Shown here in pieces: positions 7,771 to 33,168 of a stretch of DNA of 64,000 nucleotides. Under the pieces are notes generated by a model. That model had not been told where the DNA came from. It did not search any database and saw only the letters and a list, made by a program, of their open reading frames with translations. Within the stretch, counting starts at the first letter, position 1; each line of letters opens with the position of its first letter. The DNA is from an uncultured Clostridia bacterium (GTDB lineage: Bacteria > Bacillota > Clostridia > UBA1381 > UMGS1253). Both the position numbers and the translations under genes were made by a program. The DNA lies in assembly GCA_934457145.1 (NCBI GenBank), contig CAKSHP010000007.1, positions 5,162 through 69,161 on the forward strand, written 5' to 3'.

Positions 7771-8139
7771 TTATAATACTTCAGGTGCCAATGATAAAAT
7801 CTTCATGTACTCTTTATCACGAAGCTCTCTTGCAACAGGCCCGAATATACGAGTACCTCTGGGGTTCTTATCATCTCTGATTATAACAGCTGCGTTCTCG
7901 TCAAATCTAATGTGTGTACCGTCGTTACGTCTCACACCTTTAGAACTTCTTACAACAACAGCCTTTACTACGTCACCTTTTTTTACAACACCGCCGGGTG
8001 TTGCCTTTTTAACGCTGGCAACTACTACATCGCCTATATTTGCAAACTTCTTGCCGCTGCCGCCCAAAACTCTGATGCACATAATTTCTTTTGCACCTGT
8101 ATTATCGGCAACCTTCAATCTTGTTTGTGGTTGTATCAC
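7771..8139 (-). CDS. rplN: 50S ribosomal protein uL14
   Basis: 122 aa starting [27 protein letters not shown]. Confidence 0.97.
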
Positions 8140-21321: not shown

Positions 21322-21366
21322 AAACAAGGGCAAAATGTATATTTTTTTCATTTTGCCCCTGTTTAT
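21322..21366 (-). terminator. Intrinsic terminator after the HTH-desulfoferrodoxin gene
   Basis: AACAGGGGCAAAATG-N-CATTTTGCCCCTTGTT hairpin with flanking T/A runs. Confidence 0.6.
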
Positions 21367-21945
21367 TTAAACGTTTTTATAAAAAAGTCCGTGCTCTATA
21401 CACATATAAAACAGCGTTCCGCGTGCAAAATACGGCAAACGAAACGTCATATCTTGTTCGGGATAAAGTTTTTTAACAACCGCGCAGTCGCCTGTAACAA
21501 ATGCCGCAAAGCAAATATAATGCTCTTTTGTCATTTCGTGTACCGATTCAATAAGATATTCGTTTGCGTCTTTTAAAACTAAAACGCTGTGCTCATCATC
21601 TTCAGGCTTTGCCTCAAGCGCACAAAGCTTTTCCGCGCAGCAGCTGATGTTTGCCTCTCCTATCTGCCAAATAATATTTTTACACACCGGACACATATAA
21701 AACCTGACATTTTTAAGATTTCCGTTAACGTATTTATTCGTTTTCATACTTCCGCTTATAAGGCTCTGTGCGTCAATGCCGAGCGTGTCTGCTATTAGCG
21801 GCAGCATTTTCGTGTCCGGAATTCCCGCTCCCGTCTCCCATTTTGAAACTGTTTTGTCGCTGACAAACAGCCTGTTTGCAAGCTCAAGCTGCGTCATGTT
21901 TTTATCTGTTCTCTTTTTTCGTATCAAAGCGCCTATGTTTTCCAT
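21367..21945 (-). CDS. XRE-family HTH domain fused to a complete 2Fe desulfoferrodoxin (superoxide reductase-like) module
   Basis: The N-terminus IGALIRKKRTDKNMTQLELANRLFVSDKTVSKWETG is an HTH_3. It is followed by a desulforedoxin-like CPVC-x15-CC, then DEHS, VHEM, KEHY and CIEHG, which correspond to the four His plus Cys ligands of SOR centre II. Confidence 0.75.
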   Translation of the reverse strand: MENIGALIRKKRTDKNMTQLELANRLFVSDKTVSKWETGAGIPDTKMLPLIADTLGIDAQSLISGSMKTNKYVNGNLKNVRFYMCPVCKNIIWQIGEANISCCAEKLCALEAKPEDDEHSVLVLKDANEYLIESVHEMTKEHYICFAAFVTGDCAVVKKLYPEQDMTFRLPYFARGTLFYMCIEHGLFYKNV

Positions 21946-22040
21946 TTGTGATTTCTCCTTTCGTATTCATTATACACCACACGCACCGCTTTGTAAATCA
22001 ACGTATCGCAGAGTTTCGTTCAGACACCGGCTATAGATTA

Positions 22041-22069
22041 TTGACAAGCAAAATGTAATATGATATTAT
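22041..22069 (+). promoter_or_regulatory. Sigma-A promoter for the heparinase-like gene
   Basis: TTGACA, a 17-nt spacer, then TATTAT. An imperfect inverted repeat ATGATAT-N13-ATATCAT (22060-22086) overlaps the -10. Confidence 0.5.
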
Positions 22070-22103
22070 TTTTACATAAATATCATGCAAGCGGGGATAA
22101 AAA

Positions 22104-23774
22104 ATGTATAATAATTTTTCTAAAACACTTCCTAAAAATTCACACACCGAAAAGCTTATTAAAAACGTTAAAACAGCTGCCGTCTCTTATCTTAATTCAC
22201 CCATACAATCCCTTAAATATTCCGTATATGCAAACAACCTTAAAACCGGCGAAAGATTAGCATACGAGCAAATATATATAGAACACAGAAAGCGTCTGAA
22301 TGTCTTTTTAATAATGGCTCTCTACTCGCCCGACGAAATCTATATAAAAGAACTTTGCGATATTCTTTGGGCAATATGCGACGAATTCACATGGTGTTTG
22401 CCTGCACACACATATGTTGTGCAAGGTAAAAAAACTATCTCTGATTTTGAAACGGCAATCGACCTTTTTGCCGCAGAAACTGCATTTTATTTAAGCGAAA
22501 CAGTTTATCTTGTAAAAGACAGAATTGATTCTATGGTGCACAACAGAGTAAAAAGCGAAGTAGAAAGGCGTATTATAAATCCATATTTGTCAGAAAATTT
22601 AACATGGGCAAAAAACAATTGGTCGGGCGTCTGCGCTTCATCTATAGGCATTTCAATGATTTATTTTAAAATGCATGATGAATTCGAAAAAGCAAAGCCG
22701 AAACTTTTAAAATCAATCGACGATTTTTTAGAAAGCTATGACAATGACGGCTGCTGCAAGGAAGGCGCGCTCTATTGGGTATACGGCTTCGGATTTTTTT
22801 GCTATTTTGCCGAGCTTTTAAACGAATACACAAACGGCAAAACAAATTATTTTAATTTAAAAAAAGTTAAAAACATTGCGCATTTCGGAGAAAACATCTT
22901 TTTAAAAAATAATCACACCATTCCCTTTTCGGACGCACCCCACGAGCTTAATTACAATATAGGTCTGTTCACACTGCTTAGCAAAAAATATGGCACGCAT
23001 CTGCCGTCCTTTGACAACGAAAGTCTTTTCGGAGATGATGTAAGATACAGAATGTGCCACATGATACGCGACTTTTTTTGGTACGACGAAAGTCTGCCCG
23101 CAAGCCGTGATAAAACCGGATTTTTTTGCTACCTCGATGCAATGTGGTATATAAATAAAAAAGAAAATTACTCATTTGCCGCAAAGGGCGGAAACAACAA
23201 CGAACCTCATAATCACAACGACCTCGGTTCATTCATTTTATATGACAACGGCAAATATATAATAGACGACTTAGGCTGGCCCGTCTATGAAAAAGACTAT
23301 TTCAGCCCCGATGTCCGCTATGAAAATCTATGCGCCTCCTCACTTGGGCACAGTGTGTTTTCGTTTGATAATAAAGAACAAATCACAGGTGATGCAGGCT
23401 ATGCGGTGTTGCTTGAAGCAACCGAAAACTGTTTTGCGCTTGACCTGTCTGCTGCATACGAACCAAATAAAAAAATCACCCGAAAATTTCAGCTTTCAAA
23501 TAAAGAAATAAAAATAACCGATTTGCTGCCTTTCAAAGCAGCCGAAAGATTTGTTACAAGGCTAAAGCCTCAAATATTAAACTCAAGCACCGTAAAAATT
23601 GAAAATTGGCACATTAGCTGCAATGTCCCGTGTAAAATAGAAATTCAAGAAAAATTCTTTCATCCGAGAAACACAATTGTAAAAAGCTCCATGAAAGATA
23701 CCGAACGGGCATATTTAATCGACTTTATACCTATCAAATATAACGAAAACACAGAAATTCTGATATCAAAATAA
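22104..23774 (+). CDS. Heparinase II/III-like family protein (polysaccharide-lyase-like, cytoplasmic)
   Basis: 556 aa. NNEPHNHNDLGSFILYDNGKYIIDDLG matches the heparinase II/III C-terminal H-x-H-x-D-x-G-S-F signature. No signal peptide. Confidence 0.65.
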   Translation: MYNNFSKTLPKNSHTEKLIKNVKTAAVSYLNSPIQSLKYSVYANNLKTGERLAYEQIYIEHRKRLNVFLIMALYSPDEIYIKELCDILWAICDEFTWCLPAHTYVVQGKKTISDFETAIDLFAAETAFYLSETVYLVKDRIDSMVHNRVKSEVERRIINPYLSENLTWAKNNWSGVCASSIGISMIYFKMHDEFEKAKPKLLKSIDDFLESYDNDGCCKEGALYWVYGFGFFCYFAELLNEYTNGKTNYFNLKKVKNIAHFGENIFLKNNHTIPFSDAPHELNYNIGLFTLLSKKYGTHLPSFDNESLFGDDVRYRMCHMIRDFFWYDESLPASRDKTGFFCYLDAMWYINKKENYSFAAKGGNNNEPHNHNDLGSFILYDNGKYIIDDLGWPVYEKDYFSPDVRYENLCASSLGHSVFSFDNKEQITGDAGYAVLLEATENCFALDLSAAYEPNKKITRKFQLSNKEIKITDLLPFKAAERFVTRLKPQILNSSTVKIENWHISCNVPCKIEIQEKFFHPRNTIVKSSMKDTERAYLIDFIPIKYNENTEILISK

Positions 23775-23824: not shown

Positions 23825-25264
23825 TTATTCTTCAGGCTTTAAAACATATTTTTTCATTGCCCCGTGTCCGCAAAATATCTTCCATTCCCCCGCACCGAGC
23901 CGCGAGAAAAGCGCTTTTCTTTCCTGTGCACAAAGCTTCGGATCCGTGTCCACCGAAGTCATCAATATAGGCGCATAACGGTTATATTCAGCCTGCTTTT
24001 CCGTCATGTCTTTAATATTTACAAATATGTCTCCGCTGAAAACTATGCGGTTTTCATAATCAATCAAAACCGACTCTCCGAAAAGATGTCCGCCCATTCC
24101 CTGATAAAGCTCAAAATGCAAATTGCCGAAATCAAAAAATCCCGTCCGCTCCAAAACCTCTTTGCCGCTGCCGCTTTTACCGACCGTCTTAATCTTTTTC
24201 GGATCAACCGGTTTGTATGAAGTCAGTATTTTGCAAATCTGAATGTATGGCTTATGCAGAGAATTTTTTTCGCGAAAACCGCCGCCCGTTTCATATTCCA
24301 TCTTCAAACACTTTGCCGACTCCTCACTTGCATAAACCGTGTCAAAATAAGGCAAAAGTCCGCAGTGGTCAACGTCTGCATGAGTTATAAAAACCTCTTT
24401 TTTCATATTCTCAAATTCCGGTATAAGCTTTGAAAACAGCTTTTTCATTTCATCCGCGCAATATGCATACCCCGTGTCAACAAACAAACATTTCCCCTCG
24501 CTCAAAATTATCGCACAGTTGCTTCCGCATGGAGGCTCAATTAAAATAACTCCCGTTTCTTCATTGATTTCGTGCATAGAAATTCTCGGTAAATAGTTTT
24601 TCCCTCTTGCCTGCGCCAAAAGCTTGCAAAAGCGGCTTATGCTGTCAAATGTGCGATACGGCGACACATCCGAGTCATCAAGCTGCTGCATCAAAAGATT
24701 TGTGTTCACCATAAGCGCCTCGCGCGAATCGCTTGAAATCTGCATAAGCGACGCAAGCTCATCAACGAAATGTATATAAAAAATACTGTTGTCATAAATT
24801 TTGTCCGCATGATTATAGTCTATAACCCGAACTTCGCAAAGCTTTTTTACCTCTTTTAAAAATTCATCAATTTTTTGCGCATCGTTTACCACAACACCCA
24901 TTTTAAAATACTGATAGTCCGAACCGTTCTCCTGTGAATTTATATAAGAAATATTAAAACTGAATTTGCTTATCAAATCCAGAATATCCGTAACGCTCCC
25001 CGGAATATCGCGGATTTTAAACTCCATAAGTATAACATTTTTTGCATTTTCGCCGCACCCCGTATACCCTATCTGTTCAAGCTTTTTTGCCGCCGCGTCA
25101 AGCTGTTCTTTTGTGCCCTTTGCATCTATAAAAAGCATATGCGAATCAACTGCCTTGTTATAGCTGACTCTCGTTATATTTACGCCAAACTCCGCAAAAC
25201 AGCGGCTCGCCTTTAAAAATGCACCTATGTGATTCGGCATAACCGTAACAAATGTTTTCTTCAT
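23825..25264 (-). CDS. Tandem ACT domains fused to an MBL-fold metallo-hydrolase
   Basis: Two ACT-like beta-alpha-beta-beta-alpha-beta segments at the N-terminus. VFITHADVDHCG is the HxHxDH-type metal motif. Start moved to the ATG at 25264, behind GGGGGAAG. Confidence 0.65.
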   Translation of the reverse strand: MKKTFVTVMPNHIGAFLKASRCFAEFGVNITRVSYNKAVDSHMLFIDAKGTKEQLDAAAKKLEQIGYTGCGENAKNVILMEFKIRDIPGSVTDILDLISKFSFNISYINSQENGSDYQYFKMGVVVNDAQKIDEFLKEVKKLCEVRVIDYNHADKIYDNSIFYIHFVDELASLMQISSDSREALMVNTNLLMQQLDDSDVSPYRTFDSISRFCKLLAQARGKNYLPRISMHEINEETGVILIEPPCGSNCAIILSEGKCLFVDTGYAYCADEMKKLFSKLIPEFENMKKEVFITHADVDHCGLLPYFDTVYASEESAKCLKMEYETGGGFREKNSLHKPYIQICKILTSYKPVDPKKIKTVGKSGSGKEVLERTGFFDFGNLHFELYQGMGGHLFGESVLIDYENRIVFSGDIFVNIKDMTEKQAEYNRYAPILMTSVDTDPKLCAQERKALFSRLGAGEWKIFCGHGAMKKYVLKPEE

Positions 25265-25350
25265 TAAAACTTCCCCCATGCTCCGCTTTGTTTTATTTTT
25301 TGCCTTATTATACTACAATCTTTTCACATTTTCAATACTGAGCCTTTCTT

Positions 25351-31134: not shown

Positions 31135-33168
31135 TTACTGTTCATCTTTTTTTTCATCTGTGTCATTATCTTTGGTGTCTGTCGAAAAGCTGTCTGCCGG
31201 CATCTGATTTAAACTCTCCGAAGAATCTTTTCCATCAGCATAAACCGAAAATTCCGGTCTTTTTGCTTCATTTTCCTGCTGAATTCTGCGCACCTCAGCT
31301 GCCTCTTCTTCTCTTTTTTCGTTTTCTTTTCTTGTTTTAACAAGCTGTTTATATTCGTCTATCTTATTATTAAAAATCGCATCGAATTCCTCGCCCGTAA
31401 TCTTTTCGTTTTCCATAAGATACTCGGCAACCCGATTTAAAATATCAATGTTTTCCGACAAAATCTTTTCACACCGGTCAAAACATTCGCACACAATGCG
31501 CTTTATCTCGCTGTCAATCTGCGCAGCAACGTTTTCGCTGTAGTTTCTTGTGTGACCGAAGTCTTTTCCCAAAAACACCTCCTGCGACGAACCGTATTTT
31601 ATAGGCCCTATAACGTCGCTCATACCATACTGCGTAACCATAGATCTTGCAATTTCGGTTGCGCGCTCAATATCGTTTGAAGCGCCCGTGCTTATATCGT
31701 TTAGCGTCAGCTTTTCAGCAACTCTTCCGCCCAAAAGCGCCACAATATCTTCATTCATGCGCTTTTTAGACGAATACCATATATCCTCTTTTGGAATGTG
31801 CATCGTATAGCCTCCCGCCATACCTCTCGGTATAATGGAAACCTCATGCACCGGATCCTGAGTCGGCAAAAATCTGCTGACAACCGCATGCCCCGCCTCG
31901 TGGAAAGCCGTGAGTTTCTTTTCGTGTTCGCTGATTTTTCTTGACTTTTTCTCCGTTCCGACCGCAACCTTCATCATTGCGTCCTGCAAATCCTTGCTGT
32001 GAATTTGTTTTTCGTTGTTTCTTGCAGCTAAAAGCGCCGCTTCATTCATAAGGTTTGCCAAATCCGCACCTGTAAATCCGGCAGTTGATTTTGCAACCAC
32101 CGACAAATCAACATCGCTTGCAAGCGGTTTTCCCTTTGAATGTACTTTTAAAATTTCTTCTCTGCCTTTTGCATCCGGTGCACCGACAACCACCTGTCTG
32201 TCAAATCTGCCCGGTCTTAAAAGCGCAGGATCCAATATATCCGGACGGTTTGTTGCCGCAATAACAATCACTCCCATGTTATCGCCGAATCCGTCCATCT
32301 CAACAAGCAATTGATTTAGAGTCTGCTCCCTTTCATCATGTCCGCCGCCAAGACCCGCGCCGCGGTGTCTGCCGACAGCGTCAATCTCATCTATAAACAC
32401 AATGCTCGGACTGTTCTTTTTTGCCTGTTCGAAAAGATCTCTTACTCTCGACGCTCCGACTCCGACAAACATCTCAACAAAGTCCGAACCGCTTATGCTG
32501 AAAAACGGCACCTTTGCCTCACCCGCAACAGCCTTTGCCAAAAGTGTTTTACCTGTTCCCGGAGGGCCTACCAACAGCACACCTCTCGGAATTCTTGCGC
32601 CAAGCTCCGTAAACTTTTTCGGATTTTTCAAAAATTCCACAATTTCAAAAAGCTCGGCTTTTTCCTCGTCCGCTCCGGCAACATCGGAAAACAAAACCTT
32701 GTTTTTATTATCCGAAAGCATTTTTGCCTTGCTTTTCCCGAAGCTCATTGCCTTTCCTCCGCCCTGAGCGCGGTTCATAAAGAAGAAATAAAGGAATATC
32801 AAAAGAAGCATACTTCCGAGCATCGGAAGAATTGAAACCCACCACGGCTGTGTCTCGGGAGCTTTCGTGTCATACTTAAGATCTCCTTTTTCAACCTGAT
32901 TTCTTATATCCTCTCCCAAATCCTCGTTAAAAACAACCATGTTAGGTATTTCAACTTCAATTGTACTATCGGGATTTTTAAGCTGCGCCTGCGCAGTATT
33001 TCCGGTAATTGTAAGACTTTTTACGTTTTCGTTTTTGATTTCTTTTTGCAAATCCGAATATATCTTTGCAGTTGTCACCGATTTCGGCGTTGTAAACATA
33101 TATATCATTGCAATTATTGCGCAAAAAACAGCAACGTAAAATACAATTTTGCTCAACTTGCCCTTCAA
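31135..33168 (-). CDS. ftsH: ATP-dependent zinc metalloprotease FtsH
   Basis: GPPGTGKT Walker A, DEIDA Walker B, HEAGHA zinc site, N-terminal TM segments. Confidence 0.97.

Follow-up and report, generated by a model that had tools for sequence, protein, structure and literature searches.

How most strict anaerobes perceive superoxide or redox-active drugs is largely unknown; to our knowledge, they do without the SoxR and OxyR sensors of enterobacteria. The enzymes closest to the protein considered here are the two-iron superoxide reductases (2Fe-SORs), e.g., those of D. baarsii (2ji1), D. desulfuricans (1dfx) and T. pallidum (1y07), which have a two-domain fold with a Cys4 iron centre (centre I) in a desulforedoxin (Dx) domain and a His4Cys iron centre (centre II) in the other. 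The ligands of centre II are spaced H-x19-27-H-x5-H-x40-63-C-x2-H (PMC11980386). In 2011, the database SORGOdb (Lucchetti-Miganeh et al., PMC3116461) listed a class named HTH-Dx-SOR, comprising 19 proteins with no function given. A gene for such a protein, i.e., a helix-turn-helix (HTH) domain followed by a diverged desulfoferrodoxin (Dfx), lies on the minus strand of the stretch of DNA studied here: 64,000 nucleotides from an uncultured Clostridia bacterium (contig CAKSHP010000007.1), hereafter the window. The first-pass annotation of this stretch had noted that such a class is listed in SOR classifications and knew of no functional study of it, and none was found in literature searches; nor was anything found in the literature on 2Fe-SORs and DNA binding.

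Most genes of this family carry a predicted palindromic operator at a fixed position on their own promoters, and most of the proteins that they encode have retained all of the iron ligands of a 2Fe-SOR. On balance, we lean towards the view that the protein is a one-component regulator that contains iron, forms dimers and controls its own gene, its SOR-like module serving both as sensor and as dimeriser. In Clostridia, Negativicutes and Treponema alike, the family joins a putative iron site of the SOR type to a domain that binds DNA; its 15-bp operator with fixed geometry, its list of partner genes and its cultured hosts make it experimentally tractable.

The protein and its superoxide reductase-like module

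The HTH domain of the protein scores well above the Pfam HTH_3 gathering cutoff of 23 bits (see table), as an XRE-family domain does, and its recognition helix, VSKWE, is invariant in an alignment of 121 homologues. The C-terminal module is not matched by the Pfam models PF01880 and PF06397 at E ≤ 1; its score with TIGR00320 is 29.6 bits, below the curated cutoff of 146.9; direct comparison with PDB sequences by phmmer is marginal (E 0.05-0.1) and its identity to SORs is about 20%. A profile made from the 121-sequence alignment, compared by hhalign with the SOR of D. baarsii, gave a probability of 97.9% and an E-value of 4.2e-13 over 112 columns; residues 5-97 of the D. baarsii sequence used agree with the PDB alignment printed by phmmer. 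In the hhalign comparison, Cys85, Cys88, Cys102 and Cys103 align with the Dx cysteines of centre I, and the centre II ligand positions His119, His136, His142, Cys182 and His185 pair with H49, H69, H75, C116 and H119 of D. baarsii SOR, i.e., all nine metal ligands of a 2Fe-SOR are present in the window protein. The top PDB matches of the AlphaFold2 model (predicted local distance difference test score 92.5) found by Foldseek were all 2Fe-SORs (2ji2, 1y07, 1dfx and 1vzg; E 9e-9 to 1e-7; template modelling (TM) scores 0.74-0.79, normalised to the SOR chain), with the Dx domain and immunoglobulin-like β-sandwich of that fold. Judged from alignment and model, the C-terminal 115 residues are a diverged desulfoferrodoxin with the two-domain 2Fe-SOR fold, and N-terminal HTH, Dx and SOR modules follow one another in one polypeptide, as in the HTH-Dx-SOR class.

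This is the architecture, with its full set of ligands, that the first-pass annotation had read from the sequence, and Pfam, hhalign and Foldseek confirm it; the residue correspondences that it had proposed (EKHVP with DEHSV, AHPM with VHEM, EKHWI with KEHYI and CNLHG with CIEHG) were right, as the ligands within them align by hhalign. Of the profile searches that it had suggested, the one with HTH_3 succeeded and those with the desulfoferrodoxin models of Pfam missed the module. The cysteine spacing that it had given, CxxC-x15-CC, is that of canonical Dx; the actual spacing is CxxC-x13-CC, here and in 188 of 194 family members. The spacing of the centre II ligands is x16/x5/x39/x2, two of the four intervals being just shorter than the published ranges. 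Its description of the desulfoferrodoxin as complete holds for the ligands and is weakened by the loss of the catalytic Lys and by the 29% of family members in which centre II is incomplete. Asp117 and Glu118 occupy the positions of Glu47 and Lys48 of SOR, such that the (E)(K)H motif of 2Fe-SORs reads D117-E118-H119 and the position of the catalytic Lys is held by Glu. This Lys is reported to attract superoxide and to help protonate the peroxo intermediate (Lombard et al. 2001, cited in PMC3116461). By curated thresholds and by the EKH motif the protein is outside the SOR family proper, yet it has kept the SOR fold and ligands.

A first search at E ≤ 1e-3 gathered 306 clusters of proteins that have this architecture and a length of about 194 amino acids. 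Members are present in at least 585 species genomes of GTDB, in the Oscillospiraceae, Lachnospiraceae, Peptostreptococcales, Negativicutes (Sporomusa, Pelosinus), Desulfosporosinus and Treponema, and the C-terminal domain alone has 571 representatives at 50% identity. Cultured hosts include Enterocloster lavalensis, Lacrimispora, Anaerocolumna aminovalerica, Acetoanaerobium noterae and Treponema ruminis. The four cysteines of centre I are complete in 193 of 194 members. At centre II, the first His is present in 151, the second in 193, the third in 190, the Cys in 187 and the fourth His in 172 of the 194, and the full His4Cys set in 137 (71%); the replacements are mostly Glu, Asp or Cys, which are also metal ligands, and centre II has been lost wholly in a few members, e.g., locus L008 (Aequitasia blattaphilus) and protein P0003. 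The Lys48 position is Glu in 84 members, Asn in 25, Ala in 19 and Lys in only 8. Thus, as far as sequence conservation can tell, the family has held on to a metal site at centre II without the second sphere of SOR, and centre I is essentially invariant. Five proteins of about 116 amino acids (P0123, P0128, P0137, P0141 and P0150) appear to be stand-alone diverged Dx-SOR-like domains; all begin at a Met within the GNMKRTKFYVCP segment of the family and may be truncated gene calls.

A palindrome on the promoters of the family

About 900 open reading frames (ORFs) from 80 genome loci were clustered and the immediate neighbours of the gene were compared with Pfam, and no neighbour family was present in more than 4 of 74 loci; the divergent heparinase-like gene, whose promoter had been put forward as the place of the operator, is therefore not a partner that the family retains. 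As the neighbouring genes were not conserved, the upstream regions were examined. The palindrome CTACG-N3-CGTAG is perfect in eight loci, compared with a maximum of three in shuffles. The family consensus, TCTACG-N3-CGTAGA, is a dyad of 15 bp, and with up to three mismatches it occurs in 62 of 76 family upstream regions and in 30 of 687 control segments. Nearly all family sites lie 62-115 nucleotides 5′ of the start codon. When 67 promoters were aligned on the motif, a common layout emerged: aAc-TCTACG-gAG-CGTtGA, then TTG (-35), 17 nucleotides, TAtaaT (-10) and a GGAGG ribosome-binding site. An exact match was found in 25 of 80 independently retrieved genome loci, almost always at -60 to -130 and on the sense strand, and a scan of metagenomes with a 17-mer of the operator returned 120 loci, in 66 of which the match is directly 5′ of an HTH-Dx-SOR gene.

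The half-sites are reverse complements of each other, and the 9 bp between their centres would suit an XRE protein that binds as a dimer. A dyad-symmetric operator is thus associated with the gene, and the window protein would be what binds it. In the window, the site directly adjoins the -35 hexamer TTTACA of the regulator promoter, with its centre at about -43 from the presumed transcription start. Its position weight matrix (PWM) score (see table) compares with a family median of 19.9, and it is the sole match in the 64 kb at up to one mismatch. Autoregulation through 21998-22012 would be the most economical reading, with the protein itself as the predicted binder. The regulatory role suggested by the first-pass annotation is thus backed by the palindrome that the family conserves at its promoters, and loses the operator proposed for it.

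That proposed operator was an inverted repeat at 22060-22086, which overlaps the -10 box of the promoter of the heparinase-like gene. The repeat exists, but it had been called imperfect and its 8-nucleotide arms, with a spacer of 11 nucleotides, are 100% complementary. It bears no resemblance to the family operator at 21998-22012, is not conserved in the family and was rejected as the operator, being unrelated to the family motif and at roughly chance level for AT-rich DNA. The sole close relative, L207, is identical at 22060-22086 and has a run of N across the true operator, and hence is uninformative.

Other candidate sites were set aside. The best other PWM match in the window, ATTCTTCGGAGAGTTTA at 31210-31226 (minus strand, score 13.9), lies inside the 3′ end of an FtsH ORF, about 125 nucleotides 5′ of a DUF1858 gene, and about 0.4 such hits are expected by chance per 64 kb. 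Three matches on viral contigs are all one phage sequence without promoter layout, and so were attributed to chance. Two further arrangements were seen. Several human-gut metagenome contigs (L094, L098, L136, L187-L190, L197 and L198) have two operator-like motifs 24 nucleotides apart, ACTCTACGGAGCGTAGA and ATTCTACGTTGCGTGGG, followed by an apparent decayed HTH gene. In L161 (637-1188), the operator-promoter and an HTH start (MTQKQLADKM) run into RCC1-like repeats, either by gene rearrangement or as an assembly chimera.

Partner genes, fusions and surroundings

Many of the further metagenome matches of the operator keep the promoter layout but precede genes other than the regulator. Besides CatA-like acetyltransferases (PF00302; L125, L132/L139, L164, L181/L203 and L096), these encode DUF2087 proteins, a GIY-YIG-like protein that is small and not matched by Pfam, and an FMN_red flavoprotein with a CxxCxxC motif. 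A tblastn search of these partners against all loci revealed operon linkage to the regulator in 16: the regulator is followed by the acetyltransferase in L024, L042 and L109; by the GIY-YIG-like gene and then DUF2087 and/or the acetyltransferase in L066, L121, L150, L157 and L199; and by FMN_red in L012, L016, L056, L082 and L135; whereas in L015, L017 and L115 the GIY-YIG-like gene comes before the regulator (with DUF2087 also 5′ in L015 and L017). Cultured hosts with the regulator in an operon of this kind include Anaerocolumna aminovalerica and Acetoanaerobium noterae, with the GIY-YIG-like gene, and Vallitalea maricola, with an acetyltransferase gene. The best match of the acetyltransferases is CatA, with 197 bits against an NCBI equivalog cutoff of 270, and their substrate is therefore uncertain. 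No function for DUF2087 was found in the literature. The regulator is also found fused to additional domains: to DUF2087 (P0167, 295 amino acids, 89.5 bits), to the TipAS antibiotic-recognition domain (P0207, 324 amino acids, 96.9 bits), and to a C-terminal LCM-type S-adenosylmethionine-dependent methyltransferase (PF04072, E down to 1.5e-42; about 490 amino acids), the last identified by Pfam in three loci (see table) and by homology in L062, L075 and P0171.

The TipAS and DUF2087 fusions tie the family to drug or xenobiotic response modules and, as read from their sequences, the partners are enzymes that modify small molecules and modules that recognise drugs. Genes for rubrerythrin or flavodiiron proteins were not found among the immediate neighbours or the linked operons surveyed; canonical Dfx genes lie 3-5 kb away in two loci only, neither of which has an operator site. 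The outputs look more like xenobiotic detoxification than classical defence against reactive oxygen species.

L066 (Anaerocolumna aminovalerica) has the self promoter and operator twice; the second copy (7946-8100), which is nearly identical, is followed by a truncated remnant of the first 18 codons of the regulator and lies 5′ of a DUF2087 gene, which looks like promoter capture by duplication. A CAT-family gene in L132/L139 has the operator and a -10 at the standard distance and no TTG at -35; it would seem to be the sole promoter seen here that needs activation. In Acetoanaerobium noterae (NZ_CP154629.1, L209-L216; 2.63 Mb, labelled 'plasmid' in PLSDB and evidently a chromosome), a family member follows a GIY-YIG-like ORF that has a strong site (score 21.1) ahead of it. 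No further site scoring 15 or more was found beyond the regulator's own operon in 390 kb of this record (about 15%), and a canonical desulfoferrodoxin was not found in it at E ≤ 1e-8.

The features of the window gene, with those of other loci mentioned above, are collected in the table. Having its own promoter (11 of 12 consensus positions), ribosome-binding site and terminator at 21322-21364, the regulator gene is monocistronic. As the window holds no partner gene, only autoregulation can be proposed as the output in this organism. An identical protein with identical surroundings is found on gut-metagenome contigs; shared are the divergent heparinase II/III-like gene, the ACT/metallo-β-lactamase protein, the CCA-adding enzyme, GH42 and GH88 glycosidases, SpoIIP and the S10 ribosomal operon. 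The host, a gut Clostridia relative, forms spores. The divergent neighbour (22104-23774, plus strand; 556 amino acids) has only a weak heparinase II/III C-terminal match, and its promoter, TTGACA-17-TATTAT at 22041-22069, is strong, with an extended -10. The ACT-domain and metallo-β-lactamase-fold protein is encoded at 23825-25279 (minus strand).

Table. Coordinates of the regulator gene, its protein domains and control elements and the rejected inverted repeat in the window, and of the methyltransferase fusions in three other loci.
Feature	Position	Strand	Basis
HTH-Dx-SOR-like regulator ORF, 192 amino acids, stop codon included	21367..21945	-	ORF call and domain evidence
XRE/HTH_3 DNA-binding domain, residues 8-60	21766..21924	-	Pfam HTH_3, E 1.7e-10, 41.2 bits
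Desulforedoxin-like centre I domain, residues ~80-113	21607..21708	-	hhalign to D. baarsii SOR
SOR centre II-like β-sandwich, residues ~114-192	21370..21606	-	hhalign, Foldseek, family conservation
Predicted operator, minus-strand TCTGCGATACGTTGA, 6-3-6 palindrome	21998..22012	-	Family motif match, PWM 17.7
Regulator promoter, TTTACA (-35)-17 nucleotides-TATAAT (-10)	21969..21997	-	11/12 consensus positions; sigma-A-type
Ribosome-binding site AGGAG, 9 nucleotides 5′ of ATG	21955..21959	-	Sequence reading; GGAGG-rich columns in family promoter alignment
Intrinsic terminator, hairpin then U-run	21322..21364	-	RNA fold -25.5 kcal/mol, z -6.4, 0/200 shuffles as good
Inverted repeat ATGATATT-N11-AATATCAT	22060..22086	.	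Overlaps -10 box of heparinase-like gene promoter
Regulator-LCM methyltransferase fusions	L022 615-2075; L046 5947-7452; L064 5983-7482		Pfam

Proposed mode of action and known regulators

The regulator that we favour can be pictured as follows. The SOR-like module would dimerise as 2Fe-SORs do and thereby place two HTH domains on the two half-sites of the operator, through which the protein would control its own promoter; elsewhere, it would control the co-transcribed or operator-bearing genes, i.e., those for the CatA-like acetyltransferase, FMN-reductase, DUF2087 and GIY-YIG-like proteins. Since the Lys has been replaced by Glu and the module has drifted below the SOR family thresholds, it may act as a sensor rather than as an efficient superoxide reductase. 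The signal, probably an oxidant or a redox-active xenobiotic, would act by oxidising the open Fe(II)His4Cys site or by binding there as a ligand. A carboxylate (Asp117 or Glu118) might then ligate Fe(III), as Glu47 does in SOR, and the loop and the domain that follows the HTH linker would shift, thereby altering DNA binding or the contact with RNA polymerase. The direction of control can be argued by analogy either way: the centre at -43 resembles lambda CI at PRM and the controller (C) proteins of restriction-modification systems, which activate, whereas promoters with a good TTG and -10, and operons in which an enzyme gene comes after that of the regulator, are more like those of inducible repressors (ArsR, CsoR).

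What is established for this regulator comprises its domains, fold, ligand alignment, conservation, operator geometry and partner linkage; iron binding, dimerisation and DNA binding we infer, and this weighs against it together with the following. Natural SORs lacking the Glu stay active, and loss of the Lys lowers, but does not abolish, catalysis, so that the protein may still be enzymatically active. Centre II is altered in 29% of members, and L008, without it, still has a perfect operator; since members that lack it keep the operator, centre II cannot be needed for binding to DNA. Accessory genes are missing from the surroundings of most family loci, and the 64 kb of the window hold no other convincing operator and none of the accessory genes. 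The window site deviates from the consensus at a highly conserved position (A4 to G), and a different factor, one that is found along with the gene, might be what binds the operator.

The first of the rival explanations to be considered starts from the enzyme: the protein may be a bifunctional 'trigger enzyme', i.e., a working superoxide reductase whose HTH merely sets its own expression level. All nine metal ligands align with those of SOR, the fold matches 2Fe-SOR, two relatives rise above the Pfam Desulfoferrodox threshold of 22.2 (P0207 with 24.9 bits and P0208 with 24.5 bits), and in the A. noterae record, where no canonical Dfx appears at E ≤ 1e-8, the fusion might be the only SOR-like protein. 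Set against these are the Glu of the window protein at a Lys48 position that is Lys in 8 of 194 members, a centre II that is altered in 29%, a TIGR00320 score of 29.6 against 146.9 with no Pfam match, the low copy number of a regulator, which suits an enzyme poorly, and partners that are acetyltransferases, flavin reductases and TipAS rather than the electron donors rubredoxin and NROR; this explanation is therefore judged unlikely. The alteration of centre II bears also on a second rival, in which the Dx-SOR-like module is a metal-stabilised dimerisation scaffold and the protein either a constitutive, signal-independent autoregulator or one controlled via extra domains, e.g., TipAS, or partner proteins, e.g., DUF2087. 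Centre I, which stabilises the Dx domain at the 2Fe-SOR dimer interface, is the invariant site (193 of 194), centre II can be lost with the operator still perfect (L008), and some members have further domains of the ligand type attached to them (TipAS, DUF2087). However, the second His (193/194), third His (190/194) and Cys (187/194) of centre II are conserved far above the mean column identity of 54%, and the substitutions, being mostly to other metal ligands (Glu, Asp, Cys), argue for a retained metal site, which makes a mere scaffold improbable.

That retained site might instead report iron availability, Fe(II) at centre II determining, as for Fur or DtxR, whether the protein binds DNA. An HTH joined to a mononuclear Fe(II) site that is exposed to solvent would suit such a role, but no iron-uptake or iron-storage genes were found among the linked genes or immediate neighbours, and we give this reading very little credence. 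Finally, the palindrome might be the site of another regulator, or a promoter element, with the HTH-Dx-SOR protein binding elsewhere, as the association of gene and site is purely positional. Yet the element follows the gene across phyla while all of the neighbouring genes change, 66 of the 120 metagenome matches stand in front of family members, and the dyad symmetry with half-site centres 9 bp apart fits a dimeric XRE protein; a foreign site is thus highly improbable.

Within the favoured picture of an iron-containing regulator, a more specific and more speculative version can be entertained, which we regard as possible but doubtful: the converted Fe(His)4Cys site would be a receptor for superoxide, or for redox-active or nitroaromatic xenobiotics and their nitroso and hydroxylamine products, and the protein would act at the -43 operator to turn on enzymes that modify drugs (CatA-like acetyltransferase, flavin reductase, methyltransferase). 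If true, sensor regulators with mononuclear iron would gain a new class, and one that is widespread among gut anaerobes without SoxR and OxyR.

Two regulators that might have been taken for members of the family are not: OseR of C. difficile is an Spx/YusI protein, and TrtA of T. denticola is an XRE protein of 104 amino acids without an SOR module. The window protein resembles the HTH-Dx-SOR class of SORGOdb in architecture, having an N-terminal HTH before desulforedoxin and SOR; the SORGOdb paper (PMC3116461) does not deal with DNA sites or target genes, nor with the residue that stands in for the catalytic Lys. The architecture has been known since 2011; what appears to be new is the operator with its promoter geometry, together with the partner genes and the way in which centre II degenerates.

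With 2Fe-SORs, the window protein shares the two-domain fold, the Cys4 centre I and the His4Cys centre II; it differs from them in having DEH rather than EKH, HEM rather than HPM, and x13 rather than x15, in carrying a DNA-binding domain and in lying below the Pfam and TIGR thresholds. Its operator recalls those of lambda CI at PRM and of the C proteins (C.BclI, C.AhdI), which are XRE dimers with a palindrome abutting the -35 of their own promoter. CI at OR2 is centred at -42, near the -43 or so of the family site, and C.BclI (2b5a_B) is a structural match to the HTH domain (Foldseek, TM score 0.75). Unlike the window protein, these regulators have no metal-binding sensor domain. The multidrug-responsive regulators TipAL and Mta are comparable in that some family members (P0207) have a TipAS domain; however, TipAL is of the MerR and not the XRE type, and the window protein has neither a TipAS domain nor a downstream enzyme. 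In organisation, the 'regulator-first' detoxification operons of ArsR and CsoR are comparable, since in many family loci the regulator is followed, within one operon, by a gene for a drug- or xenobiotic-modifying enzyme.

PerR, NorR, SoxR and FNR, redox sensors with mononuclear iron or an iron cluster, let a protein-bound iron centre signal the presence of an oxidant to the domain that binds DNA, as may be the case here. This is an analogy only: their folds and DNA-binding domains are unrelated to those of the window protein, and none of them uses an Fe(His)4Cys site of the SOR type. If the iron site is a sensor, the family would show clearly how an antioxidant enzyme can be turned into a receptor for signals, and may link redox chemistry to antibiotic-modifying enzymes in gut bacteria.

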